Source: Falsiroseomonas sp.
Lineage (GTDB): Bacteria > Pseudomonadota > Alphaproteobacteria > Acetobacterales > Acetobacteraceae
Assembly (NCBI RefSeq): GCF_030695085.1
Contig: NZ_JAUYTS010000079.1
Coordinates: forward strand, 15,208-79,207
DNA: 64,000 nt
Direction of reading: 5' to 3'
Shown here: one piece after another, positions 192-37,112 of the stretch
Numbering within the stretch: position 1 is the first letter of the stretch
Layout: each line of letters begins with the position of its first letter
Notes under the pieces: generated by a model
What the model was told of the DNA's origin: nothing
What the model saw: only the letters and a program-made list of their open reading frames with translations
The model's database searches: none
Translations under genes and position numbers: made by a program

Positions 192-1151
192 TTAGGCCTC
201 ACGCATCAGCAGAGCCAGTAGCGTCTCCGCCTTCAGCGCTGCTTGTTGACCGTCTGCCGCCGTTGCATCCGCGCCCACCAGCGCGGCCAGCTCCGGCCGA
301 TCGACGAAGACCCGTCCGCCGACGAGCACCCCGATCTGCGGGTTGCGGGAGGCGCGTCGCACCGCCCGGATGGTGGTGGCCAGGACCTCAAGATGATCCT
401 CGCTGGCCATCGAGAAGCCGATGGCGGCGAACCATTGCCGCCGCACCACCGCCGACAACTCCTTGGCGGTGGTGCCGGTGCCGGAGGAAACCTCCCACCC
501 CTGGCGCCGGAAGAATTCGCCGACCATGACCAGGCCAAAGCTGTGCTGCTCACCCGGTACCGGGGCCAGCAGGATCCGGCGTTCCACATCGCCGCGGCCG
601 AGTCGCGGCTGGAAGGCGGGGCTGTTCTCCAGCACCACCTGCTGCAGGCAGCACAGGCCGATGGTGACCGCCGTGAAGTCGCAGCGGTCCTGTTCCCACA
701 TCTCGCCGAGATGCCGGGCGACCGGGGCCAGCAGGTACAGATAGATCCGCTCCAGCGGCATGCCGCGCCCGGTGAGGCCGCCGACATAGGCGAGTGCGCC
801 GCTGAGGTCGCCCTGCAGGGCCAGGCCGGCAACGACGGAGATATCCTCCGGCTGCGGCATGCTGGCGCCGGGGCTGTCGATATAGGCGGGCGTATTGGCT
901 TCGCGCCGCGAAAGCACCAGGCGGGGGATCACCTCCGTCTCCAGGGTGCGGGCCAGCAGGGCGACGCGCCGGCGCTCGGCGTTCGCAGGCCGGATGCGCG
1001 CGGGCGGCGCACGGGGGCTGGCAGGCGGCGACCACCTGTCGCTGCCGGCGGGGTCGCGGCCATGGCCGGAATGCGGGGCGGACCCTGCCTCCTGCGCCTG
1101 GCTGGCGGTTTCCGCCATGTGCTGTGCTGCCATCATCGGCTTCGCGGACAT
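192..1151 (-). CDS. ppaA: Cobalamin-binding antirepressor AerR/PpaA
   Basis: B12-binding motif EQHSFG (ExHxxG), WEQDRCDFTAVTIG helix bundle, GGAGG RBS upstream of ATG 1151, divergent from bchF and upstream of ppsR. Confidence 0.93.
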   Translation of the reverse strand: MSAKPMMAAQHMAETASQAQEAGSAPHSGHGRDPAGSDRWSPPASPRAPPARIRPANAERRRVALLARTLETEVIPRLVLSRREANTPAYIDSPGASMPQPEDISVVAGLALQGDLSGALAYVGGLTGRGMPLERIYLYLLAPVARHLGEMWEQDRCDFTAVTIGLCCLQQVVLENSPAFQPRLGRGDVERRILLAPVPGEQHSFGLVMVGEFFRRQGWEVSSGTGTTAKELSAVVRRQWFAAIGFSMASEDHLEVLATTIRAVRRASRNPQIGVLVGGRVFVDRPELAALVGADATAADGQQAALKAETLLALLMREA

Positions 1152-1228: not shown

Positions 1229-1418
1229 CTGTGAGCGCCGGGCCTCTAGCCTCCCTGAACAAGCACGGTGTGGGAGAGAAAAAGATGCGCAGGGAAGCGG
1301 CCAAGCCGGCCAACAAGCGCAGTCTTCTCGGACATTTCCCCCATCGCGGGCTGCCGGCCAGGGGCCACGGCAGCCGTCTGCGGACAGCGGACCGCCTTTG
1401 ACGGAGGGTTGTCAAGCC

Positions 1419-3277
<1,859 letters not shown>

Positions 3278-18042: not shown

Positions 18043-19772
18043 CCGACACCGCGGCACCCGCTTCGGATGCCGTGCAGGCCGCGATGCTGCTGGCGGTCGA
18101 TCCCGCAGGTCTCGGCGGCGCCGTGCTGCGCGCGGCGCCGGGTCCGGCGCGGGAAGGGTGGCTTGCCGGGCTGCGTGCGGCGTTGCCCACGGGCACGCCC
18201 TGGCGGCGCCTGCCGCTCGGCATCCCCGATTCGCGGCTGCTCGGCGGGCTGGACCTGGCCGGGACACTGGCCGCCGGACGGCCTGTGCTGGAACGCGGCG
18301 TGCTGGCGGAAGCCGATGGCGGCATGGTCATCGCCCCCATGGCGGAACGGCTGGAGGCGAATACCGCGGCGAAGCTTGCCGCGGTGCTGGATGCCGGTCA
18401 CGTAGCGGTGCAGCGAGACGGGCTGGACCTGATGCTGCCGGCGCGCGTTGCGCTGATCGCGCTGGATGAGGGGCTGACGGAGGAGGAAACGCTGCCGCCG
18501 GCGCTGGCGGAACGTCTCGCCTTCAGGCTGGAGCCGGAGACTGTGCCGCTGGGTGCCGCCCCGCAGATCGCTGTGGCCCGTGCACGGCTGGATCAGGTTG
18601 CGGTGCCCGATGCGCTGCTGGCCGCGCTGTGCGGCGCCGCCATGCAGTTCGGCATCGCCTCCCTCCGCGCGCCCCTGTTCGCGCTGCGGGCCGCGCGGGC
18701 TGCCGCGGCGCTGGCCGGACATGAGGCTGTGACGGAGGCGGATGCGGCGCTCGCCGTGCGGCTGGTCTATGGGCCGCGGGCGACCCGCCTGCCCGAATCG
18801 GATCCCGACCAGGCGGAGCCACCGCCCTCGCCGGAGGAGAACCCGCAGGACAGCGACCAGCCCGAGCCGCAGCCCGGCCCGCAGGAATTGCAGGAGATGC
18901 TGCTGGAAGCGACGCGCGCGGCGCTGCCCGCTGGGCTGCTTGCTGCGCTCGGCGCCGGCGCGCGTGATGCGGCGCGGCAGGCGGGCGCGCAGGGTCGGGA
19001 AGGCCAGCGCCGCATGTCCGCACTGCGTGGCCGCCCAATCGGCACGCGCGCAGGTGCGCTGCGGGCCGGTGCCAGGCTGTCGCTGGTGGAGACGCTGCGC
19101 GCGGCCGCACCCTGGCAGGGCATTCGCCGGCGGGAACGTGGCGACCGGCCCGGCCCGCTGGTGCTGGTGAAACAGGATGACGTCCGCCTGCTGCGCTTCC
19201 AGCAGCATACCGAAACCACCGCGATCTTCGCCGTCGATGCTTCCGGCTCCGCCGCGCTCGCGCGGCTTGCCGAGGCGAAGGGCGCGGTGGAACTGCTGCT
19301 GGCCGATTGCTATGTGCGGCGCGACCGCGTCGCCGTGGTCGCCTTCCGCGGCCGCGCGGCGGAGCTGCTGTTGCCGCCGACCAATTCGCTTCTGCGTGCC
19401 AAGCGCAGCCTCGCTGGGCTTCCAGGTGGAGGCGCCACGCCGCTCGCCGCCGGCATCGATGCGGCCATGGCGCTGGCCGAGGAAGCGCGCCGCCGAGGCC
19501 GCACGCCGCTGCTGGTGCTGCTGACCGATGGCCGCGCCAATATCGCCCGCGACGGCACGGCGGGCCGCCCGCGCGCCGAGGCCGATGCGCTGGCTGCCGC
19601 AGCACCCTGCCGCGCCGCCGGGATTGCCACGCTGCTGGTCGATACCGCACCGCGCCCGCAACCCTTCGCGAAGCAGCTGGCCGAGGCGATGGGGGCCCGC
19701 TACCTGGCTTTGCCCAGCGTGGATTCGCAAAAGCTGTCGGCCGCGGTGGCGACGACACGGGAGGTGGCGTGA
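18039..19772 (+). CDS. bchD: Magnesium chelatase subunit D
   Basis: AAA-like N-terminus, Pro/acidic linker (EPPPSPEENPQDSDQPEPQP), vWA domain with VDASGS MIDAS and LLTDGRAN. Confidence 0.96.
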   Translation: MTDTAAPASDAVQAAMLLAVDPAGLGGAVLRAAPGPAREGWLAGLRAALPTGTPWRRLPLGIPDSRLLGGLDLAGTLAAGRPVLERGVLAEADGGMVIAPMAERLEANTAAKLAAVLDAGHVAVQRDGLDLMLPARVALIALDEGLTEEETLPPALAERLAFRLEPETVPLGAAPQIAVARARLDQVAVPDALLAALCGAAMQFGIASLRAPLFALRAARAAAALAGHEAVTEADAALAVRLVYGPRATRLPESDPDQAEPPPSPEENPQDSDQPEPQPGPQELQEMLLEATRAALPAGLLAALGAGARDAARQAGAQGREGQRRMSALRGRPIGTRAGALRAGARLSLVETLRAAAPWQGIRRRERGDRPGPLVLVKQDDVRLLRFQQHTETTAIFAVDASGSAALARLAEAKGAVELLLADCYVRRDRVAVVAFRGRAAELLLPPTNSLLRAKRSLAGLPGGGATPLAAGIDAAMALAEEARRRGRTPLLVLLTDGRANIARDGTAGRPRAEADALAAAAPCRAAGIATLLVDTAPRPQPFAKQLAEAMGARYLALPSVDSQKLSAAVATTREVA

Positions 19773-20653
19773 TGGCCGAACGCCCCAACTGGAACATCGA
19801 GGGTCGCGACTGGCCGAACCGGGCGGCGAGCCGATTCGTCACCGCTGCCGGGCTGCGCTGGCATGTGCAGGTGATGGGCCAGGGGCCTGTGCTGCTGCTG
19901 CTGCACGGCACCGCCGCGGCCACGCATTCCTGGCGCGACCTGATGCCGCTGCTGGCGCGCGACTTCACCGTGGTGGCGCCCGATCTGCCAGGCCATGGAT
20001 TCTCGGATGGCGTGCCGGCGGTGCGGCTTTCGCTGCCGCATATGGCGGCCTCCGTCGCAGCGTTGCTCGGCGTGCTCGGGATGCGGCCGGTGCTGGCGGC
20101 GGGTCATTCGGCGGGGGCGGCGATCCTGCTGCGCATGGCGCTCGATGGGCGCATCGCACCGGATTGCATCCTCAGCCTGAATGGCGCCCTGCAGCCGCTG
20201 GGGGATCGCCACGCCGCCTTCTTCACGCGCACGGCGCGGATGCTGGTGGGCCTGCCCTTCGTGCCGAGCCTGTTCGCCTGGCGGGCCGCGGATCGCGCGG
20301 TGGCGGAGCGGTTGTTGCGCGATACCGGCAGCCGGATCGAGGCGCGCGGCGTCGATCTCTACGCCCGGCTGTTCCGCCATTCCGGCCATCTGGCCGCGGC
20401 CTTGGGCATGATGGCGCATTGGGATCTGGTGCCGCTGCTGCGCGACCTGCCGAGGCTGGCGCCGCGCCTGGTGCTGGTGGTGGGAGCCGAGGATCGCGCG
20501 GTGCCACCGGTGCAGGCGGAGGCCGTGCGAAAGCGCCTGCCCACCGCGCGAATCGTCACGCTGCCAGGGCTTGGCCATCTGGCACATGAGGAACAGCCGG
20601 CGCAGGTTGCGACTCTCATTCAGCAGGAATGCGCGGGGGCGCTGGCGGCATGA
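19772..20653 (+). CDS. bchO: Alpha/beta hydrolase BchO
   Basis: EGRDWPNRAASRFV N-terminus, GHSAG nucleophile elbow, GHLAHEE; follows bchD. Confidence 0.93.
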   Translation: MAERPNWNIEGRDWPNRAASRFVTAAGLRWHVQVMGQGPVLLLLHGTAAATHSWRDLMPLLARDFTVVAPDLPGHGFSDGVPAVRLSLPHMAASVAALLGVLGMRPVLAAGHSAGAAILLRMALDGRIAPDCILSLNGALQPLGDRHAAFFTRTARMLVGLPFVPSLFAWRAADRAVAERLLRDTGSRIEARGVDLYARLFRHSGHLAAALGMMAHWDLVPLLRDLPRLAPRLVLVVGAEDRAVPPVQAEAVRKRLPTARIVTLPGLGHLAHEEQPAQVATLIQQECAGALAA

Positions 20654-21681: not shown

Positions 21682-22491
21682 TCAGCGCACCACCGCCAGC
21701 CGGTACAGATGCCAGGTCGCATGCCCCAGCACCGGCAGCACGACGGCCAGCCCGATGAACAGCGGCAGCGAGCCGAGCAGCAGCAGCACCGCCACAATCA
21801 GCCCCCAGGCCGCCATCGGCAGTGGATTCTTCGCGACCACGCGCAGCGAGGTGCCGATGGCCTGCCCCAGCCCGGCCTGCGGCCGGTCCAGCAGCATGGG
21901 AAAGGACACCACCGTCAGCGCCAGCACCAGCGCGGCGAAGCCAAGTCCAACCACGTGGCCCAGCAGCAGCATGCGCTGCCCCTCCGACGTGCCGAAGACC
22001 TGTTCCAGCAGCGCCAGGCCGCCGCCGTTGAAGCGCGGGTCCTGCGCCAGCGTGCCGAGGGTGGCCGCATGGATCGCATCCGCCGCCCAAAGCCAGGCGA
22101 GGAACACAACCAGCAGCAGTACGCCGAGGCCGATGATGGCCGGCAGAGCCGGTGCACGCAGCACACCGAACACATCGGTCCAATGGGTCGGCTGCCCGGC
22201 CTCCCGCCGCCGGCTGATCTCATACAGGCCGAGCGCGGCAAGCGGGCCGACCAGGGCGAAGCCGGCGGCCATCGGGTAGAACAGGTGCATCACCTCGCCC
22301 CCCGCCGCCAGCGTGGCCGCCACCAGCCCGATGAGTGGATAGAGGACACAGAGGAACATCAACTGCGTCGGCGTGGCCAGGAAATCAGCCCAGCCCTCGC
22401 GCAGGGCGGCGCGCAGATCCCCCAGCCCGATGCGCCGCAGCGCCGGCGGGGAGAGATCGAGATGTCGCGTGGTGGTCATAGCCTCAGCCAT
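21682..22491 (-). CDS. DUF2189-like integral membrane protein
   Basis: About 6 TM helices; GFALVGPLAALGLYEISRRRE, VVSFPMLLDR and LPVLGHATWHLY motifs typical of DUF2189. Confidence 0.8.
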   Translation of the reverse strand: MAEAMTTTRHLDLSPPALRRIGLGDLRAALREGWADFLATPTQLMFLCVLYPLIGLVAATLAAGGEVMHLFYPMAAGFALVGPLAALGLYEISRRREAGQPTHWTDVFGVLRAPALPAIIGLGVLLLVVFLAWLWAADAIHAATLGTLAQDPRFNGGGLALLEQVFGTSEGQRMLLLGHVVGLGFAALVLALTVVSFPMLLDRPQAGLGQAIGTSLRVVAKNPLPMAAWGLIVAVLLLLGSLPLFIGLAVVLPVLGHATWHLYRLAVVR

Positions 22492-22560
22492 CGTTCGCTT
22501 CCCCCATTCAGGTTCCACGGACGGCCCGGTGCCGGCGATGGCCGGCAAGGACCCCGCGAC

Positions 22561-22672
22561 TGTCAAGTGGGGCGTACAGGGCCTCGCTGCGCCTCAAGCC
22601 CGCGTGACCGAATGACGGTTGACTTGACTGTCAAGAAAGTCTGACACTCCGGACTGACAAGCTGGACTTACA
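22561..22672. promoter_or_regulatory. Three PpsR boxes in the DUF2189/crtE divergent region
   Basis: TGTCAAGTGGGGCGTACA (22561-22578), TGTCAAGAAAGTCTGACA (22629-22646) and TGACAAGCTGGACTTACA (22655-22672, one mismatch). Confidence 0.85.
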
Positions 22673-23581: not shown

Positions 23582-24724
23582 ATGCAGGCGCCCGCCATTC
23601 CCGCACCCGGCCTGATGGACCGCTTTCGCGCGTGGCGCGAAGGCGTCACGGCCAATCCGCGCTTCCGCGCCTGGGCCGCACGCTTTCCGCTGACCCGGCC
23701 GGTGGCGCGGCGCCGGGCGCGGCAGTTGTTCGATCTCTGCGCCGGCTTTGTCTATTCGCAGGTGCTGGCCGCCTGCGTGCGGCTGCGGCTGTTCGAGATG
23801 CTGCATGAATCGCCCGCCAGCGAGGCTGCTCTGGCGCTCCGCCTGGCGGTGCCGCCGGAGGCAATGGGCCGCCTGCTGGCCGCCGCCGCCGCGCTGGACC
23901 TGACCCGCCAACGCCAGGACGGCATGTGGGTGCTGGGGCCGCTCGGGGCGGCGATGATCGGCAATCCCGGCATCGCCGCCATGGTGGAGCACCACGCGCT
24001 GCTCTACGCCGATCTGGCCGATCCGGTGGCGCTGCTGCGGCGTGACCGCGGTGGCAATGCGCTGTCCAATTACTGGGCCTATGCCGGTGCCGATGCGCCC
24101 GAGGCGCTGGGGGCGGAGCGCGTTGCGGATTACTCCGCGCTGATGGCGGCCTCCCAGCCCATGGTCGCGGCGGAGGTGCTGGCCAGCTACGATTTCCGGC
24201 GCCACCGCGCGCTGCTCGATGTCGGCGGCGGGGAGGGGGCCTTCCTGGCGGAGGTCGCCCCGGCCGCGCCCGATCTGCGGCTGATGCTGTTCGACCTGCC
24301 CCAGGTGGCGGCGCGTGCCACGGCGCGTTTTGCTTCGCGCGGCCTGGCTGATCGTTCGCAGGTGTTCGGCGGCGATTTCAGCACCGATCCGCTGCCGCAG
24401 GGCGCCGACCTCATCAGCTTCGTCCGCGTGCTGCACGACCATGACGATGCCGTGGTGCTGGGCCTGCTGCGCGCTGCCCGCGCCGCGCTGCCACCCGGCG
24501 GCCGCCTGCTGATTGCCGAGCCGATGGCCGGCACCAGCGGCGCCGAGCCGATGGGGGAGGCGTATTTCGGCTTCTACCTGCTGGCCATGGGCCGCGGCCG
24601 TCCGCGCCGTGCGGAGGAGCTGCAAGCCATGCTCGCTGCCGCAGGATTCGCCCGCAGCCGAGCCCTGCCGACGCCGACGCCGCTGCTGACCCAGGTGCTT
24701 GTCGCCGATGTCAGCATTACCTGA
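23582..24724 (+). CDS. crtF: Carotenoid (hydroxyneurosporene) O-methyltransferase
   Basis: ARQLFDLCAGFVYSQVL, LLDVGGGEG SAM motif and EAYFGFYLLAMGRGRPR; follows crtE. Confidence 0.95.
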   Translation: MQAPAIPAPGLMDRFRAWREGVTANPRFRAWAARFPLTRPVARRRARQLFDLCAGFVYSQVLAACVRLRLFEMLHESPASEAALALRLAVPPEAMGRLLAAAAALDLTRQRQDGMWVLGPLGAAMIGNPGIAAMVEHHALLYADLADPVALLRRDRGGNALSNYWAYAGADAPEALGAERVADYSALMAASQPMVAAEVLASYDFRRHRALLDVGGGEGAFLAEVAPAAPDLRLMLFDLPQVAARATARFASRGLADRSQVFGGDFSTDPLPQGADLISFVRVLHDHDDAVVLGLLRAARAALPPGGRLLIAEPMAGTSGAEPMGEAYFGFYLLAMGRGRPRRAEELQAMLAAAGFARSRALPTPTPLLTQVLVADVSIT

Positions 24725-24776
24725 CGCTCGCATGTCAGTTTGTCTTGACATGTGCGACTGTCAGGGTAGGCTGACA
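24709..24776. promoter_or_regulatory. Three tandem PpsR boxes upstream of bchC
   Basis: TGTCAGCATTACCTGACG (24709-24726), TGTCAGTTTGTCTTGACA (24733-24750) and TGTCAGGGTAGGCTGACA (24759-24776). Confidence 0.88.
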
Positions 24777-24803
24777 CACAAGGAAAAGGGAGCAACCGTC
24801 CAG

Positions 24804-25733
24804 GTGGACACGGTGGCAGTCTTGCTGGAAGCGCCGGAACGTCTCGTTCTCAGCCGCCTCGACCTCACGCCTCCGGGCGAGGAGGACATCGTGGTGGATG
24901 TGGAATGGAGCGGGATCAGCACCGGCACCGAGCGTCTGCTGTGGTCCGGCCGGATGCCGCCCTTCCCGGGCATGGGCTACCCGCTGGTGCCTGGCTACGA
25001 ATCGGTGGGCCGCGTGGCCTCCGCTGGTGCCGCCTCGAAGCGTCGTGTGGGTGAGCGGGTCTTCGTGCCTGGTGCGAAGTGCTTCGGTCCGGTGCGTGGG
25101 CTTTTTGGTGGCGCCGCTTCGCGTCTGGTTGTGCCAGGTGCGCGGGCCGTGCCGATCGATGAGGCGCTGGGCGAAGATGGCGTGCTGATGGCCCTCGCCG
25201 GCACCGCGCAGCATGCCATCGCGGCGGAACTGCCGGAGCTGATCATCGGCCATGGCGTGCTCGGCCGGCTGGTGGCGCGGCTGGTGGTGGCGGCCGGTGG
25301 TGCGCCCACGGTGTGGGAGACCAACCCGGCGCGTGCCGATGGGGCCATGGGCTACCAGGTCGTGGCGCCTGAAAACGACGCGCGGCGTGATTATCGCAGC
25401 ATCTGCGATGTCAGTGGCGACAGTGGATTGCTCGACACGCTGGTGCAGCGCCTGGCGCCGGGCGGCGAGATCGTGCTGGCGGGCTTCTACAGCGCGCCGC
25501 TCAGCTTCTCTTTTCCACCCGCCTTCATGCGGGAGGCGCGGTTCCGTGTCGCCGCGGAATGGCGGGAGCCGGATCTGATTGCAGTGCGTGACTTGCTCGA
25601 TGCCGGGCGTCTGTCCTTCGAAGGCCTGATCACGCATCGGCGTGACGCGACGGCCGCACCGGACGCCTACCGTACCGCCTTCAATGACCCGGCGTGCCTC
25701 AAGATGATCCTCGATTGGAGAGCATGCTCATGA
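24804..25733 (+). CDS. bchC: Chlorophyllide/bacteriochlorophyllide 3-hydroxyethyl dehydrogenase
   Basis: GTG start (M)DTVAVLLEAPERL; WSGISTGTERLLWSG, YPLVPGYESVG and FNDPACLKMILDW motifs. Confidence 0.96.
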   Translation: MDTVAVLLEAPERLVLSRLDLTPPGEEDIVVDVEWSGISTGTERLLWSGRMPPFPGMGYPLVPGYESVGRVASAGAASKRRVGERVFVPGAKCFGPVRGLFGGAASRLVVPGARAVPIDEALGEDGVLMALAGTAQHAIAAELPELIIGHGVLGRLVARLVVAAGGAPTVWETNPARADGAMGYQVVAPENDARRDYRSICDVSGDSGLLDTLVQRLAPGGEIVLAGFYSAPLSFSFPPAFMREARFRVAAEWREPDLIAVRDLLDAGRLSFEGLITHRRDATAAPDAYRTAFNDPACLKMILDWRACS

Positions 25734-28237: not shown

Positions 28238-29698
28238 ATGCTCGTCCTCGATCACGATCGGGCTGGTGGCTATTGGGGCGCGATCTACGCCTTCTCCGCC
28301 GTGCGCGGATTGCGCGTGGTGATCGACGGCCCGGTGGGCTGCGAGAATCTGCCCGTCACCGCCGTGCTGCACTACACGGATGCGCTGCCACCGCATGAGT
28401 TGCCGGTGGTCGTCACCGGCCTCGACGAAGACAGCCTGTCCAAGAACGGCACCGAGGATTCCATGCGCCGCGCCGCCGGCACGCAGGACCGGGAATTGCC
28501 GGCCGTGGTCGTCACCGGCTCGATCGCAGAGATGATCGGTGGTGGCGTGACGCCACAGGGCAGCAACCTGCAGCGCTTCATCTGCCGCACCATCGACGAG
28601 GATCAGTGGCAGGCCGCGGATCGCGCCATCATGTGGCTGTGGACCGAATTCGGCGCCCGCGGCCGCAAGATGCGCGCGCGCAACCCAAAGCTCGGCACCA
28701 CGCCGCGCGTGAACATCATCGGCCCGATCTACGGCACCTTCAACATGCCGTCCGACCTGGCCGAGATCCGCCGCCTGGTCGAAGGCATCGGTTGCGAAGT
28801 GAACCTGGTGTTCCCGCTCGGCAGCCATGTCGAGGATATCGCCAAGCTGCCGGATGCGGATGTCAACGTCTGCATGTATCGCGAATTCGGCCAGAAGCTG
28901 TGCGAGGAGCTGGAACGCCCCTGGCTGCGCGCACCGATGGGCCTGTTCGCCACCACCAATTTCCTCCGCAAGCTCGGCGAGATGACGGGCCTCGACCCCG
29001 AGCCGTTCATCGAGCGGGAGAAGCACACCACGATCAAGCCGATCTGGGATCTGTGGCGCAGCGTCACGCAGGATTTCTTCGCCTCCGCCAGCTTCGCGGT
29101 CGTCGCCACCGATACCTACACGCGCGGCCTGCAGCGCTTCCTCGGCGAGGAAATGGGCGTGCCCTGTGCCTTCGCCTTCAGCCGCATGGCCGGCGAGAAG
29201 CCGGATAATGCGGCGGTGCGCCAGGCGATGAAGAACTCGCCGCCGCTGGTGCTGTTCGGCAGCTACAATGAACGCATGTATGCGGCGGAGCTGAAGTCCC
29301 GCGCCATGTACATCCCGGCCAGCTTCCCGGGTGCGATCATCCGCCGTGCCACAGGCACGCCCTTCATGGGCTACGCCGGCGCGACCTACATCGTGCAGGA
29401 ATACTGCAACGCGCTGTTCGACGCGCTGTTCCACATCCTGCCGCTCGGCACCGACCTCGACCGCGTGGATCCCACGCCGGCGCGTGCGGCGGAGCCGTGG
29501 GACGATGATGCCGTCGCGTTGCTCGATGCGCATGTGGAGGCCGAGCCCTTCCTGCTTCGGATCTCGGCGGCCAAGCGGCTGCGCGAGTCGGTGGAGCAGG
29601 CAGCGCGCGCGGCTGGCGAGCCACGAATTTCCCGCGAACGCGTCCGGCACACGCTGGGCGATGTGGTCGCGCACCCCGTTGCAGAGGGCGTCGCATGA
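28238..29698 (+). CDS. bchZ: Chlorophyllide reductase subunit Z
   Basis: [25 protein letters not shown] and [11 protein letters not shown] motifs. Confidence 0.97.
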
Positions 29699-29837
29699 TG
29701 CGGCCCCTGCATCCTTCCGTTCCAGCGTGCTGCCACAAGCGGTTCGCGGTACGGCCTTGGCGGTTTCCCGCCGATTCCATCCCAGCCGCGCGGGATCAGC
29801 GCGGTGGCGGCCGAAAGGCAAAATGGAGGTCATCATC

Positions 29838-30017
29838 ATGGCCGAAAGCTCAAAGACCGGCCTGACCGAAGGCGAGGCACGCGAGATCCACTCCCTGCTG
29901 ATCCAGGGTTGGGCGTTCTCCGTGTTCGCTTCGATGGGCGCGCATATCCTGGTGTGGCTGTGGCGCCCGCTGGTCTACGGCAACCAGATCGTCCCGCCGG
30001 ACTGGCGCTTCTTCTGA
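29838..30017 (+). CDS. pufB: LH1 beta subunit (divergent, 59 aa)
   Basis: TGLTEGEAREIH (His-18), TM helix with His0 (GAH) and VWLWRP; GGAGG RBS; first puf gene after bchZ. This is the 3' end of ORF 29331..30017. Confidence 0.92.
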   Translation: MAESSKTGLTEGEAREIHSLLIQGWAFSVFASMGAHILVWLWRPLVYGNQIVPPDWRFF

Positions 30018-30053
30018 GGCGCGGTGTTCGACGAGAGATAGGAGATACAAGCA

Positions 30054-30239
30054 ATGCATAAGATCTGGATGGTAGTCGACCCGCGCCGTTCGCTGTTCCT
30101 GGCGATGGTCGGCGTGATCGCCGTGTCGGGGTTGCTGCACGTCGTCGTGCTCGCATCCCCCCGCTACTGCGACCATTGGGGCTGGTGCGCGACGCCTGCG
30201 ACCTTCACGCCGGGGCAACCGGTCGGAGCCCTGCGTTAA
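30054..30239 (+). CDS. pufA: LH1 alpha subunit (divergent, 61 aa)
   Basis: MHKIWMVVDPRR N-terminus and TM helix with His0 (LLH); GGAG RBS; lies between pufB and pufL. Confidence 0.92.
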   Translation: MHKIWMVVDPRRSLFLAMVGVIAVSGLLHVVVLASPRYCDHWGWCATPATFTPGQPVGALR

Positions 30240-30253
30240 AGCAGGGCGAAGGC

Positions 30254-30328
30254 GCCGGTGTCGCTCCGCGGCAGCGGGCGAGGCCAGTACAGCGGCCCTC
30301 GTCCGCTGCCCGGGACGACGACACAGGC
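30254..30328 (+). other. pufA-pufL intercistronic stem-loop (probable mRNA stability element or partial terminator)
   Basis: Inner stem GGCAGCGGGCGAGGCC (30270-30285) pairs with GGCCCTCGTCCGCTGCC (30294-30310), extended by outer pairing; analogous to the known pufBA stabilising hairpin. Confidence 0.7.
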
Positions 30329-30368
30329 AGGCGGGCACTAGGCCCCGCCCATAAGGGAGCGTCATGCG

Positions 30369-31196
30369 ATGGCGATAATGACTTTCGAGCGGAAATATCG
30401 CGTCCGCGGGGGCACCCTGGTGGGCGGCGACCTGTTCGATTTCTGGATAGGCCCGTTCTGGATCGGGTTCTTTGGGGTCACCACGGCCTTCTTCACCTTC
30501 CTCGGTGTGGGCCTGATCCTGATGGGCGCGGCGATGGGTGGCACCTTCAACCCCTGGCTCATCAACATCGCACCGCCGGACCTCAGCTATGGTCTGCGCC
30601 TGGCGCCGATGGCCGAGGGTGGGCTCTGGCAGGCGATCACGGTGTGCGCGATTGGCGCCTTCGTGTCGTGGACACTTCGCCAGGCCGAGATCTCCCGCAA
30701 GCTGGGCATGGGCTATCACATCCCCATCGCCTACAGCGTTGCGGTCTTCGCCTACATCACGCTGGTGGTCATCCGCCCCGTGCTGATGGGCGCCTGGGGA
30801 CACGGTTTCCCCTACGGCATTTTCAGCCACCTCGATTGGGTTTCCAACGTCGGCTACCAGCACCTGCACTTCCACTATAACCCGGCGCACATGCTGGCGG
30901 TGACGTTCTTCTTCACCACCACGCTCGCGCTGTCGATGCATGGTGGCCTGGTGCTGTCCGCGCTGAATCCGGCCAAGGGCGAAGTGGTGAAGACGGCCGA
31001 ACATGAGAACACCTACTTCCGCGACCTGATCGGCTACTCGATCGGCACGCTCGGCATCCATCGCCTCGGTCTGTTCCTGGCGCTGTCGGCGGGGTTCTGG
31101 AGCGCGGTGTGCATTGTCATCAGCGGGCCGTTCTGGACCCAGGGCTGGCCGGAATGGTGGGGCTGGTGGCTCAACCTGCCGATCTGGAACAAGTGA
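30369..31196 (+). CDS. pufL: Reaction center L subunit
   Basis: [29 protein letters not shown] (His L168/L173), SMHG and GTLGIHRLG motifs. Confidence 0.99.
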
Positions 31197-31217: not shown

Positions 31218-32222
31218 ATGCCTGAATATCAGAACCTCTTTACCCGGGTGCAGGTCCGGGGGCCGGTGCCCTATCCGGGTACGCCGATGGGCACCGCCCA
31301 GCTGCTCGCGGGCAACTCCGAACGCGAGACGCCTGGCACCTTTGTCAGCCTGTTCGGCAAGATCGGAGATGCCCAGGTCGGGCCCGTCTATCTCGGCACG
31401 CTCGGCGTGCTCTCGATCATCTTCGGCTTCATCGCCTTCGAGATCATCGGCCTCAACATGCTGGCCTCCGTGAACTGGGACGTCGTCCAGTTCATCCGTC
31501 AGCTTTTCTGGCTGGCGCTGGAGCCGCCTTCGGCTGAATACGGGCTTCGCATTCCGCCGCTGCGCGAAGGCGGCTGGTGGATCGCCGCCGGCTTCTGCCT
31601 GACGGTGTCCATCCTGCTGTGGTGGGCGCGGACCTACCGCCGCGCACGTGCACTCGGCATGGGCACGCATGTGGCCTGGGCCTTCGCCGCCGCGATCTGG
31701 CTGTATCTGGTTCTGGGCTTCATCCGCCCCGTGCTGATGGGGTCCTGGAGCGAGGCGGTGCCCTTCGGCATCTTCCCGCATCTCGACTGGACCGCGGCAT
31801 TCTCCATTCGCTACGGCAACCTGTTCTACAACCCGTTCCATGCGCTTTCGATCGTGTTCCTGTACGGCTCCACCCTGCTGTTCGCCATGCATGGTGCGAC
31901 CATCCTGGCACTGGGCCGCTACGGCGGTGAGCGTGAGATCGAGCTGGTGCTGGATCGTGGCACGGCGGCTGAACGTGGTGCGTTGTTCTGGCGCTGGTGC
32001 ATGGGCTTCAATGCCAGCTTCGAGAGCATCCATCGCTGGGCCTGGTGGTTCGCCGTGCTCTGCCCGCTGACAGGCGGCATCGGCATCCTGCTGACCGGCA
32101 CGGTGGTGGACAACTGGTACCTTTGGGCCGTCGATCGCCACTTCGCCCCGGCCTATCCGCAGATCTGGGAACCGGTCATCGACCCGGCCCTCGCTGCCCC
32201 GATGCAAGGAGCGCCTCGATGA
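31218..32222 (+). CDS. pufM: Reaction center M subunit
   Basis: [22 protein letters not shown] (His M202), FAMHG and [10 protein letters not shown] motifs. Confidence 0.99.
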
Positions 32223-33292
32223 GCCTCACCGCACGCGTCGGCCTGGTCTTCGCCGCAGCCCTTTGCGTCGTGATCGTGCTGATGACCTTCGAACGGCCAC
32301 CGGTGACCACAAGCCAGCAAGGCTTCCGTGGCGTCGCGATGGAGCAGGTGGTCAACCCGCGCACCCAGGCGGTGCGCCTCGCGGCCAACCGTGTTCCGGA
32401 GGCGCTTGAAGCCGCCGATACGGATGGCGAGAGGGCGCGCGAAATCTACGAGAACGTCCAGGTGCTGGGCGAACTGAGCGTCGCGCAGTTCGGCCGCATC
32501 ATGCAGGCGATGACGGAGTGGATCGCCCCGGAGCAGGGCTGCGCCTATTGCCACAATGTCGAGAACATGGCGTCCGACGAAGTCTACACCAAGGTGGTGT
32601 CGCGCCGGATGCTGCAGATGACGCGCACCATCAATGTGGACTGGACGCCGCATGTCGGCGCAGCCGGTGTCACCTGCTACACCTGCCACCGGGGCCGCCC
32701 GGTGCCGGCGGAGGTCTGGGCCTCCACCATCCTGCCGCATAACGGCCTGCAGGCCTCGCGTGGTCAGAACCACCCCGCGCCGGTCGCCAATCTCAGTTCG
32801 CTGCCCGGCGAGCCCTTCACGCCCTTCCTCCTGCAGGATCAGGAGATCCGCGTGATCAGCACGGCGGCGCACCCGAACGGCAACCCGGTGGGCACCATGC
32901 AGACCGAGTGGACCTATGCGCTGATGATGCACATGTCCGAGGGTCTCGGCGTGAACTGCACCTTCTGCCACAACAGCCGGTCCTTCGCGAACTGGTCCAC
33001 CAGTCCGCCGTCGCGGCTGACGGCCTGGCACGGCATCCGCATGGTGCGGGACATCAACAACGACTATGTAGTGCCGCTGACGCCGCTGTGGGCCGCCAAT
33101 CCGCGCGGCCCGGCGGAAGGCCCGCACATGCCGCGGCTCGGTCCGGCCGGGGATGCGTTGAAGGTGAACTGCGCTACCTGCCACCAGGGCGCCAACCGGC
33201 CCTTCTACGGTGCGCCGATGCTGCAGGACTATCCGGAGCTCAACCTGGTCTCCGACGGCCCGCTGCGCGCAGCCTCGGCTGCCGCGCAGTGA
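32219..33292 (+). CDS. pufC: RC-bound tetraheme cytochrome c subunit with N-terminal TM helix
   Basis: Four CxxCH motifs (CAYCH, CYTCH, CTFCH, CATCH) and FERPP..QQGFRG; ATGA overlap with pufM. Confidence 0.97.
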
Positions 33293-33361: not shown

Positions 33362-33805
33362 ATGTCCGTGGCTGGCATGCTGGAACTTCTCGGGTTGTTT
33401 GCGGTGGCGCTCGGCGCCGCCAGCCTGCTTCCCATGGCATCGGAACCGCTGCTGGTCGGGCTGCTGCTTTTGGGCGGGCAGCCCGTTTGGCTGTTGGTGG
33501 CGGTGGCGAGCCTGGGCAACACGCTGGGCTCCGTCATCAACTGGGCGCTGGGCCTGCAGTTGCTGCGCTGGCAGGACCGGCGCTGGTTTCCCGTGAAGCC
33601 CTCGGCGCTGGAACGGGCGAGCGGCTGGTACCGTCGCTGGGGCTATTGGTCGCTGCTGCTGAGCTGGGCGCCGGTCATCGGCGATCCGCTGACACTGGCC
33701 GCCGGCGTGATGCGCGAACCGTTCTGGCGCTTCCTTCTGCTGGTCGCCGTTGCGAAGACGGGACGCTATGTGGTGCTTGCGCTGGTGACGCTCGGCCTCA
33801 CCTGA
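33362..33805 (+). CDS. yqaA: YqaA/DedA (VTT-domain) membrane protein
   Basis: AASLLPMASEPLL, GNTLGSVINW, LLLSWAPVIGDPLT and KTGRY motifs. Confidence 0.85.
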   Translation: MSVAGMLELLGLFAVALGAASLLPMASEPLLVGLLLLGGQPVWLLVAVASLGNTLGSVINWALGLQLLRWQDRRWFPVKPSALERASGWYRRWGYWSLLLSWAPVIGDPLTLAAGVMREPFWRFLLLVAVAKTGRYVVLALVTLGLT

Positions 33806-36322: not shown

Positions 36323-36560
36323 CGATGACGGGTTTTCTGCAACCCCGTTTCGTCGGCGGCCGGGTCGCCGATGAGGCCGTGCGATGAGTGTGCTGGAGGC
36401 CGCACAGGCCATCTGCCGGCTCGTCCGGCGGCCGCGCCCGCCGGGCCAGGGTGGTGCGGGTGGCGGCTCCGGCACCGCGCCATCCGCCGTCTCACCGACG
36501 GAATTCGTCGATGGCCGGTGGCAGGTTCTCGGCGGCAGCCGCAGCCATGCGGTGGAGACG

Positions 36561-37112
36561 ATGGCGAGGCCCGCCCGGCGGATCGCCCAGGCCTCGCTCC
36601 CGCTGGCCACGGGGGCCGCGGTCACCGGGGGCACGATCCTGGTCTGCCAGGCGCTCGGCCTGCCCGGCGCGCTGATGGAGGCCGGGCGCGGGCTGCTGGC
36701 CGATGGCGGTGACGCCGCGGATGGCGGTGACGCAGAGACCGGCAATGTGGCGGGGTCCGTGGGCGTGGTGGCAGGTTCGGCGATCGGCGGCGGCGCGGGT
36801 GCCGTGGCTGGTGCGACACCCTCCCCGAGCGATGCATCGCCTGCAGCGATCCCGCCTGGCGACGGGATTCAGCTTCTCATGGCGGCTCCCAGCCTCTTCC
36901 CCAACGGCAGTCTGCCGCAGGATGGGGTGCGGCTCGTGGATGGTCCGCGCCAGGTGGTCCAGCCGGAGCCCACGCCTGTGTCCGAGCCCGGCTCGCTCGC
37001 GTTGTTTGGCGTGTCGCTCGCACTGGTGGGCGGCATCCTGCTCACCACCGCGGCCAGGCGCCGCCGGGTTGTGCGTTCGGCGCACCCTCGCCGCATGGAT
37101 GGTGCGGCCTGA
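36561..37112 (+). CDS. PEP-CTERM-like sorting-domain protein (start 36561; ORF is open from 36384)
   Basis: C-terminal PTPVSEPGSLALFGVSLALVGGILLTTAARRRR (VPEP-like motif, TM helix, basic cluster); Gly/Ala/Asp low-complexity body; GGAG RBS before ATG 36561. Confidence 0.65.
   Translation: MARPARRIAQASLPLATGAAVTGGTILVCQALGLPGALMEAGRGLLADGGDAADGGDAETGNVAGSVGVVAGSAIGGGAGAVAGATPSPSDASPAAIPPGDGIQLLMAAPSLFPNGSLPQDGVRLVDGPRQVVQPEPTPVSEPGSLALFGVSLALVGGILLTTAARRRRVVRSAHPRRMDGAA

Follow-up and report, generated by a model that had tools for sequence, protein, structure and literature searches.

The pufB and pufA genes of a 64-kb stretch of Falsiroseomonas sp. DNA (the window; ~69% GC) encode a core antenna, light-harvesting complex 1 (LH1), that lacks both of the tryptophans which usually hydrogen-bond its bacteriochlorophylls (BChls). 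Judged from sequence, this LH1 type is a conserved trait of the Roseomonas-group Acetobacteraceae (Roseomonadaceae) and not a one-off. We lean towards reading it as a functional LH1 of a distinct type, in which displaced tryptophans of the alpha chain serve as hydrogen-bond donors and the alpha residue at His+13 (counted, as throughout, from the BChl-ligating histidine) acts as a colour switch. How BChl antennas are tuned in colour is a classic question, to which, for LH1, the pair of conserved tryptophan hydrogen bonds is the textbook part of the answer. Here, a whole family of aerobic phototrophs has a core antenna without tryptophan at either canonical position, yet the complex assembles. 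Two characterised members absorb at ordinary wavelengths; the equivalent double mutant of Rhodobacter (Rba.) sphaeroides is unstable. The same clade also includes long-known, unexplained LH1s absorbing at 854-856 nm, that of Paracraurococcus and probably that of Roseomonas sp. CK155.

The antenna genes and their distinctive segments lie at the following positions.

29838-30017, plus strand: pufB, LH1 beta polypeptide, 59 residues, MAESSKTGLTEGEAREIHSLLIQGWAFSVFASMGAHILVWLWRPLVYGNQIVPPDWRFF; ATG at 29838, with GGAGG 8 nt upstream.
29973-30014, plus strand: clade-specific beta C-terminal tail, VYGNQIVPPDWRFF, with a near-invariant Trp56; recognised by the conservation of the tail within the clade.
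30054-30239, plus strand: pufA, LH1 alpha polypeptide, 61 residues, MHKIWMVVDPRRSLFLAMVGVIAVSGLLHVVVLASPRYCDHWGWCATPATFTPGQPVGALR; Pfam LHC score of 31.9 bits against a cut-off of 23.
30168-30188, plus strand: Cys-bracketed alpha loop C39-D40-H41-W42-G43-W44-C45; D40 stands in the place of the canonical Trp+11, and the two cysteines bracket the loop.

In the beta chain the BChl ligand is His36 (29943-29945), and the His+9 position is occupied by Leu45 (CTG, 29970-29972). In the alpha chain the ligand is His29 (30138-30140), His+11 is Asp40 (30171-30173), and tryptophans are found at His+13 (W42) and His+15 (W44). The first-pass annotation of this DNA had reported the absence of both canonical tryptophans; its coordinates from 29838 and its residue counts were exact on re-reading, and Asp40 at alpha+11, with the nearest tryptophan at +13, and Leu45 at beta+9 were confirmed in the sequence. 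The alpha chain has an insertion relative to the usual RFNW motif, such that HMMER aligns W44 with the canonical tryptophan across a four-residue gap.

Several lines of evidence identify these genes as LH1. They stand in the order bchZ, pufB, pufA, pufL, pufM, and both products matched solved LH1 chains (alpha, E = 6e-7; beta, E = 2.5e-9). The alpha chain passes the Pfam PF00556 (LHC) cut-off, and the beta chain, at 19 bits, falls just under it. AlphaFold2 (AF2) monomer models place helices at residues 10-33 of alpha and 11-47 of beta, and His29 and His36 are invariant in the clade alignments, as expected of single-helix chains that each ligate a BChl. For a BChl a ring around the reaction centre with LH1-like absorption (~855-915 nm) the evidence is indirect and comes from published work on clade members, namely the purified complex of Sediminicoccus sp. 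KRV36 and the in vivo spectra of three members. By operon position, homology, topology and ligands we therefore assign pufBA to LH1; it departs from that class only in the usual donors, tryptophan at alpha His+11 and beta His+9. The missing donors leave LH1 membership standing, as they are a usual feature and not a strictly defining one. Membership of LH2 (PucA/PucB) does not fit genes in the puf operon, and the LH2 alpha and beta queries from Rba. sphaeroides gave weak matches only, to the pufB and pufA open reading frames (ORFs) themselves (E = 0.004 and 0.04). In public databases the alpha chain of the clade is annotated as LH1 alpha subunit, and PufB is labelled 'hypothetical protein' in many NCBI and JGI records; with this label and a score under the Pfam cut-off, automated antenna-gene surveys undercount clade PufB.

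We collected 80 genomic loci via PufL and extracted their upstream antenna genes for comparison with the window. Across these loci and the window, 62 sequences have W at alpha+11 and 14 have D; at beta+9, 64 have W, 13 have L and one has M. The non-Trp states are found only in the window and loci L001-L013 (14 sequences), which belong to Falsiroseomonas spp., several 'Roseomonas' spp., Neoroseomonas alkaliterrae and Dankookia rubra; outside this clade tryptophan is kept in 62/62 alpha and 64/64 beta chains. Because the non-Trp states are confined to the window's own clade, the missing tryptophans are not a matter of chance. All 14 sequences share an alpha motif, SPRY-C-D-H-x-G-[W/F]-C, and a beta motif, WRP[L/M] followed by a 14-residue tail ending in DWRFF. 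Protein searches yielded a further 32 alpha and 32 beta clusters (33 of each in all), and cluster look-ups named as members Plastoroseomonas arctica, Roseomonas fluvialis, R. nitratireducens, Paracraurococcus ruber, Roseicella aquatilis, Sediminicoccus rosea, Sediminicoccus sp. KRV36 and a strain labelled 'Roseococcus sp. SDR'. The genera that carry this LH1 are those of the Roseomonas clade, or Roseomonadaceae (PMC10715153). We found no paper in the literature that describes the clade motif, and the KRV36 paper (PMC10949492) does not discuss antenna sequences; the proteins themselves were already in public databases.

The residues around the lost donors are under strong constraint. His29, Ser35, Pro36, Arg37, Tyr38, Asp40, His41, Gly43, Cys45, Pro53 and Gly54 are invariant in the alpha clusters, and Cys39 is present in every alpha cluster sequence except one of poor quality. 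In the beta clusters AH..WLWRP is invariant; near-invariance extends to Leu45, to the tail V-Y-G-x-Q-x-V-P-P-D-W-R-F-F and, across the clade, to Ser32. A serine at alpha His-4 was considered as a further clade trait and rejected, being present only in the window's nearest relatives and KRV36, with Ala elsewhere. The alpha+13/+15 pair is variable, with WW in 16 of the 33 clusters, LW in 11, VW in two and LF in four. Mean pairwise identity in the clade is higher in the alpha tail than in the alpha helix (0.81 vs. 0.69) and reaches 0.85 in the beta tail, whereas it is the tails that vary in canonical LH1 (alpha, 0.43; beta, 0.38). At ~84-85% PufL identity, canonical lineages still share 70-82% identity in PufA and 59-75% in PufB; the corresponding values for clade versus canonical chains are 27-46% and 38-60%. 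The change was abrupt and affected LH1 only. Of 46 real beta-type matches in a search of 1.84 billion representatives, 40 have Trp+9. The top match of that search, P0093 (663 residues, 12 stretches), and P0122 (828 residues) were discarded as translated tandem DNA repeats and not antenna proteins; they score high because many weak repeat matches add up.

The cysteines that flank the alpha loop are as distinctive as the missing tryptophans. Cysteine is reported to be rare in LH polypeptides (PMC11659472), and we counted none in the 62 alpha and 64 beta canonical LH1 sequences. Each clade alpha chain, in contrast, has exactly two, spaced i/i+6 around D-H-x-G-W/F. In sister lineages (loci L088, L090 and L091; proteins P0228-P0235, P0094 and P0105) the alpha motif is SSPRY[S/A/G]DHLGWG, in which both cysteines are exchanged together (S/A/G...G for C...C) and a single cysteine is never seen. 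The C-terminus of LH1 alpha is periplasmic. Because the cysteines are all-or-none, lie on the periplasmic side and occur in aerobic hosts, an intramolecular disulfide is the simplest reading, and Cys39 and Cys45 likely form one. The Cys-less sister lineages have Trp at alpha+15 and Leu at +13, which makes W44 the older and better conserved of the two displaced tryptophans. Their beta chains also lack Trp+9: P0094 has WRPL and the DWRFF tail (WRPL...VPPDWRFF), and L090 and L091 have WRPFY (Phe at +9) and no tail. Loss of beta Trp+9 thus accompanies the alpha insertion. The PufL proteins of L090 and L091 are 77-79% identical to that of the window and 85% identical to those of L051 (an uncultured gammaproteobacterial metagenome-assembled genome, MAG) and L016 (a Hyphomicrobiales MAG). 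Either this alpha type predates the Roseomonas group, then, or it has been passed from one lineage to another.

Published in vivo absorption spectra cover three members of the clade, given here with the alpha loop and the beta+9 residue.

Paracraurococcus ruber: CDHLGWC, Leu; LH1 Qy at 856 nm (PMC12654162, Table 2).
Roseomonas fluvialis / strain S08: CDHWGWC, Leu; 798 and 866 nm (PMC5017807, Table S1).
Sediminicoccus sp. KRV36: CDHWGWC, Leu; Qy at 871 nm in vivo, emission at 883 nm (PMC10949492).

As KRV36 and R. fluvialis/S08 absorb at 871 and 866 nm, loss of the two canonical tryptophans alone does not cause a blue shift. Rather, Qy tracks alpha+13 (Trp, 866-871 nm; Leu, 856 nm), and the blue shift is seen where the alpha+13 tryptophan is gone as well. 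The KRV36 alpha motif, SPRYCDHWGWCAT, is the same as that of the window, as is the beta Leu+9. With Trp at +13 and +15, as in KRV36 and R. fluvialis, the window organism's LH1 would be expected to absorb at ~866-871 nm. Given these same-motif relatives, the earlier prediction that it absorbs well below 870-880 nm probably does not apply. We take strain S08 to be the R. fluvialis type strain, which is very probable because the two share a first author and a 'river epilithic biofilm' source. S08 was the only Roseomonas-like isolate of the Tama River study (PMC5017807). KRV36 pufA is WP_248707549.1 in the table of its paper, where reaction centre (RC)-LH1 was purified and contained alpha and beta bands (PMC10949492); the KRV36 complex has also been imaged, at low resolution.

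The first-pass annotation had also linked this LH1 to Paracraurococcus, correctly so, since P. ruber has the same LH1 type and absorbs at 856 nm (PMC12654162). Roseomonas sp. CK155, whose 16S rRNA is 98.1% identical to that of Neoroseomonas sediminicola, absorbs at 854 nm. According to a 2025 review of aerobic phototrophs, the sequence basis of the 854-856 nm shifts has not been worked out, and sequence analysis is called for (PMC12654162). Craurococcus roseus absorbs at 872 nm (PMC12654162); by contrast with the clade, a Craurococcus MAG has a canonical LH1. The clade supplies natural variants for testing, in the WW, LW, VW and LF states of alpha+13/+15, including near-identical species pairs: Sediminicoccus rosea (P0219, Leu at alpha+13) and KRV36 (P0220, Trp) are 99.2% identical in 16S rRNA and differ at a few helix residues as well. 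Within Falsiroseomonas, F. frigidaquae and F. algicola have Trp at alpha+13, and F. stagni and F. selenitidurans have Val. The LF loop, CDHLGFC, contains no tryptophan.

The mutants of Rba. sphaeroides lack tryptophan at the same two counted positions. As the earlier annotation had noted, removing either one blue-shifts LH1: loss of the alphaTrp43 hydrogen bond moves absorption to 853 nm and loss of betaTrp48 shifts it by ~5 nm, and the double mutant is too unstable to assemble (PMC10214105). The natural complexes of the clade, in contrast, do assemble, and absorption is at 866-871 nm in members that share the window's motif.

We propose the following mechanism. The alpha chain has gained 2-4 residues after the membrane helix; Asp takes the place of the acetyl-bonding tryptophan, and tryptophans stand at His+13 and +15, within a seven-residue loop closed by two cysteines and probably held by a disulfide in the oxidising periplasm of aerobic hosts. 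In the beta chain, Leu has replaced Trp+9, and the conserved 14-residue tail ending in DWRFF has been added. On our reading, the hydrogen-bonding tryptophan was displaced into the alpha loop. W44 would be the old donor, keeping the hydrogen bond to the C3-acetyl of the alpha-BChl, and W42, where present, a variable second donor, possibly to the beta-BChl of the neighbouring subunit. W42 would then replace the lost beta Trp+9, much as alpha Tyr44 acts in acidophila-type LH2. Inter-subunit stability, which is missing in the Rba. sphaeroides double mutant, would come from the disulfide loop together with the beta tail, and alpha+13 would be a natural colour switch (Trp, ~866-871 nm; Leu or Val, ~855 nm). 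The first-pass annotation had itself named W42 as a replacement donor that would speak against its predicted blue shift. That scenario fits the window better than the blue shift does, but the clade has W, L or V at the position of W42, which rules this residue out as a conserved substitute donor; we retain it as a variable tuning residue. A more tentative extension, possible but rather speculative, is that the disulfide staples a loop bearing both acetyl donors, an LH2-like arrangement in a core antenna, and that alpha+13 codon changes (TGG to CTN or GTN) retune absorption by 10-15 nm between sister species. If so, the redox response of the disulfide could tie antenna stability or colour to oxygen in obligately aerobic phototrophs.

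Several points weigh against a displaced-donor LH1 with a colour switch at alpha+13. There are only three spectra, recorded in different laboratories on different kinds of preparation (whole or sonicated cells), and the identity of S08 with R. fluvialis is deduced and not taken from the species description. P. ruber differs from the other two after the loop as well (CAPTVNAQPG vs. CATxPTFxPGQ). With Phe in place of W44 in 4 of the 33 clusters and no W42 in about half of them, assembly does not strictly require either tryptophan. The AF2 monomers show the tails as coil, with predicted local distance difference test (pLDDT) values of 55-77 and a short helix in the beta tail at low-to-moderate confidence, and are silent on pigment contacts; the PDB chains searched include no structure of the clade LH1 type. 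Finally, the KRV36 paper mentions a distant puc operon, of which its supplementary tables show only pucC homologues (PMC10949492).

The donors could instead be other invariant residues, namely alpha Tyr38 (+9), His41 (+12) or Cys39, or beta Trp56 folding back, with alpha+13 near-neutral and the 856-871 nm spread arising from ring geometry, carotenoid, post-loop sequence or measurement. We consider this alternative rather unlikely. It would account for the invariance of Y38, D40, H41, G43 and C45 and the near-invariance of beta W56, where W42 varies, and the post-loop difference of P. ruber from the 866-871 nm members is in keeping with it. There are precedents for such donors: a His beside the donor Trp takes part in the acetyl hydrogen-bond network of Thiorhodovibrio strain 970 (PMC10214105), and a Cys thiol hydrogen-bonds BChl in Roseospirillum (Rss.) parvum (PMC11659472). 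However, the only three spectra available track alpha+13, beta Tyr47 varies (several clusters have A, R or H), and a change from Trp to Leu near alpha+13 is the natural route from B850 to B820 in LH2/LH3.

It is unlikely, to a slightly greater degree, that neither C3-acetyl is hydrogen-bonded and that LH1 absorption in the window organism lies near 855-860 nm, as in the alphaW43 mutant of Rba. sphaeroides (853 nm). Asp and Leu at the canonical donor positions would fit such a complex, as would P. ruber, with its clade-type LH1 at 856 nm, and, if its LH1 is of the same type, Roseomonas sp. CK155 at 854 nm. But P. ruber, unlike the window, has Leu at alpha+13, and KRV36 (871 nm) and R. fluvialis/S08 (866 nm) are the members that share the window's SPRYCDHWGWC and beta Leu+9. 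In addition, the failure of the Rba. sphaeroides double mutant to assemble means that compensating contacts must exist in the clade. A pigment with no acetyl to bond, 3-vinyl BChl, is ruled out by the intact bchF and bchC genes of the window, which also lead us to expect that the pigment should be ordinary C3-acetyl BChl a.

That pufBA is a decaying or non-working antenna, with another alpha/beta pair elsewhere forming the core ring, is highly improbable: the beta score under the Pfam cut-off and the mention of an additional puc operon in KRV36 would suit it, but the ORFs are intact and preceded by ribosome-binding sites, at least 33 clusters show strong conservation that peaks in the tails, no member has a second antenna pair in its puf operon and the 64-kb window has no other LH-like ORF, the genes are transcribed, and purified KRV36 RC-LH1 contains both chains.

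Compared with canonical LH1 (Rhodospirillum rubrum, Rba. sphaeroides and the inner ring of Gemmatimonas phototrophica), the clade has the same operon order (bchZ-pufB-pufA-pufL-pufM-pufC), a single membrane helix with its His ligand in either chain, and the same alpha N-terminus (MHKIWxxxDPRR) and beta motifs (LTExEAxExH and AHxLVWxWRP). It differs in having Asp at alpha His+11 and Leu at beta His+9, a 2-4 residue alpha insertion with two cysteines, a beta tail ending in DWRFF, membrane helices rich in small residues with Ser at beta His-4, and PufA chains just 27-46% identical even at 84% PufL identity.

A parallel for a colour switch is the pair LH2/LH3 (B800-850/B800-820) of Rhodoblastus acidophilus, in which the acetyl donors, Tyr44 and Trp45 (His+13 and +14), lie on the C-terminal stretch of alpha, and natural replacement of Tyr/Trp by Phe/Leu blue-shifts the ring (LH2 to LH3). 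Likewise, Trp versus Leu/Val at alpha+13 of the clade goes with 866-871 versus 856 nm, a link that is only correlative. In LH2/LH3 the antenna is peripheral, light and temperature switch between several puc copies and the shift is ~30 nm, whereas the clade has a single core-antenna gene that differs between species, with a shift of ~10-15 nm. In the Ca2+-binding LH1s (Thermochromatium tepidum and Thiorhodovibrio strain 970), too, a remodelled alpha C-terminal loop with Asp/His beside the donor Trp sets colour and stability. In contrast to these, the clade shows no red shift and has cysteines flanking the loop, and the Ca2+-binding WxxDxI/V motif (as in PMC11659472) is absent from the window's alpha loop, CDHWGWCAT, on direct reading. 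Rss. parvum is, like the clade, among the few with cysteine in LH1. There, the cysteines are single ones near the His in the helix (alpha-Cys36, beta-Cys36), a Cys thiol hydrogen-bonds BChl (PMC11659472), and Qy is red-shifted to 908 nm; the clade instead has a periplasmic pair at i/i+6.

An RNA sequencing (RNA-seq) contig of a related organism spans 29745-30258, differing at a single position, and ends at the base of a hairpin between pufA and pufL.

30258-30324, plus strand: RNA hairpin between pufA and pufL, core stem; -74.9 kcal/mol for 30236-30372, z = -4.1.

This intercistronic hairpin likely stabilises the 3' end of the pufBA transcript. A stable pufBA message that is more abundant than pufLM is the classic pattern, which the hairpin and the RNA-seq contig match.

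Most of a photosynthesis gene cluster lies inside the window. It runs from a B12-binding regulator-like gene (minus strand) through bchF-N-B-H-L-M, lhaA, puhA-B-C, acsF, puhE and hemA to bchI-D, crtB, an O-methyltransferase gene (crtF-like), bchC-X-Y-Z, pufB-A-L-M-C, a VTT-domain ORF, crtI, a response regulator gene and crtD (minus strand). Its other features include the following.

192-1151, minus strand: B12-binding-domain protein, AerR/PpaA-like, at the left edge of the window.
1398-2003, plus strand: bchF, 3-vinyl bacteriochlorophyllide hydratase, first step to the C3-acetyl; TIGR02020, 194.5 bits against a cut-off of 101.
19528-20589 and 36384-37112: two ORFs without a family match.
21682-22566, minus strand: DUF2189 membrane protein.
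24699-25733, plus strand: bchC, dehydrogenase completing the C3-acetyl group; TIGR01202, 444.8 bits against a cut-off of 291.
28238-29698, plus strand: bchZ, directly upstream of pufB, in the operon context bchCXYZ-pufBALMC; orthologues with Pfam Oxidored_nitro and PCP_red.
30369-31196, plus strand: pufL, reaction-centre L subunit; 97% identity to Falsiroseomonas frigidaquae PufL.
31218-32222, plus strand: pufM, reaction-centre M subunit.
Within 31997-33292: pufC, after pufM.
33362-33805: VTT/DedA-domain membrane protein, between pufC and crtI.

No bchG, bchP or ppsR was found within the 64-kb window; these genes presumably sit past its left end. A six-frame phmmer search of the window with seven queries (clade LH1, canonical LH1, LH2 and an extra beta-like ORF of Burkholderiales, described below) found no second antenna gene pair or LH2. 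A groundwater metagenome holds DNA identical to that of the window.

Two further observations concern antenna genes outside the clade pattern. The beta sequence P0063, from a 591-bp ENA contig, joins a canonical membrane helix, FIVFTVIAIVAH, to a clade-type end, WLWRPLVYGNQIVPPDWRFF; either recombination in nature or chimeric assembly produced it. In Burkholderiales loci L021, L029, L059, L069, L071, L072, L077 and L080, a conserved ORF lies between pufB and pufA, and one is also found at L090:1229-1489 and L091:1283-1483 (66-86 residues over all loci). Its product is beta-like, with Gln replacing the BChl-ligating His (e.g. ...GQLLGWHWRSWLPGAEGVKS...YTFMSHLL), and looks like a real third small protein of the puf operon.

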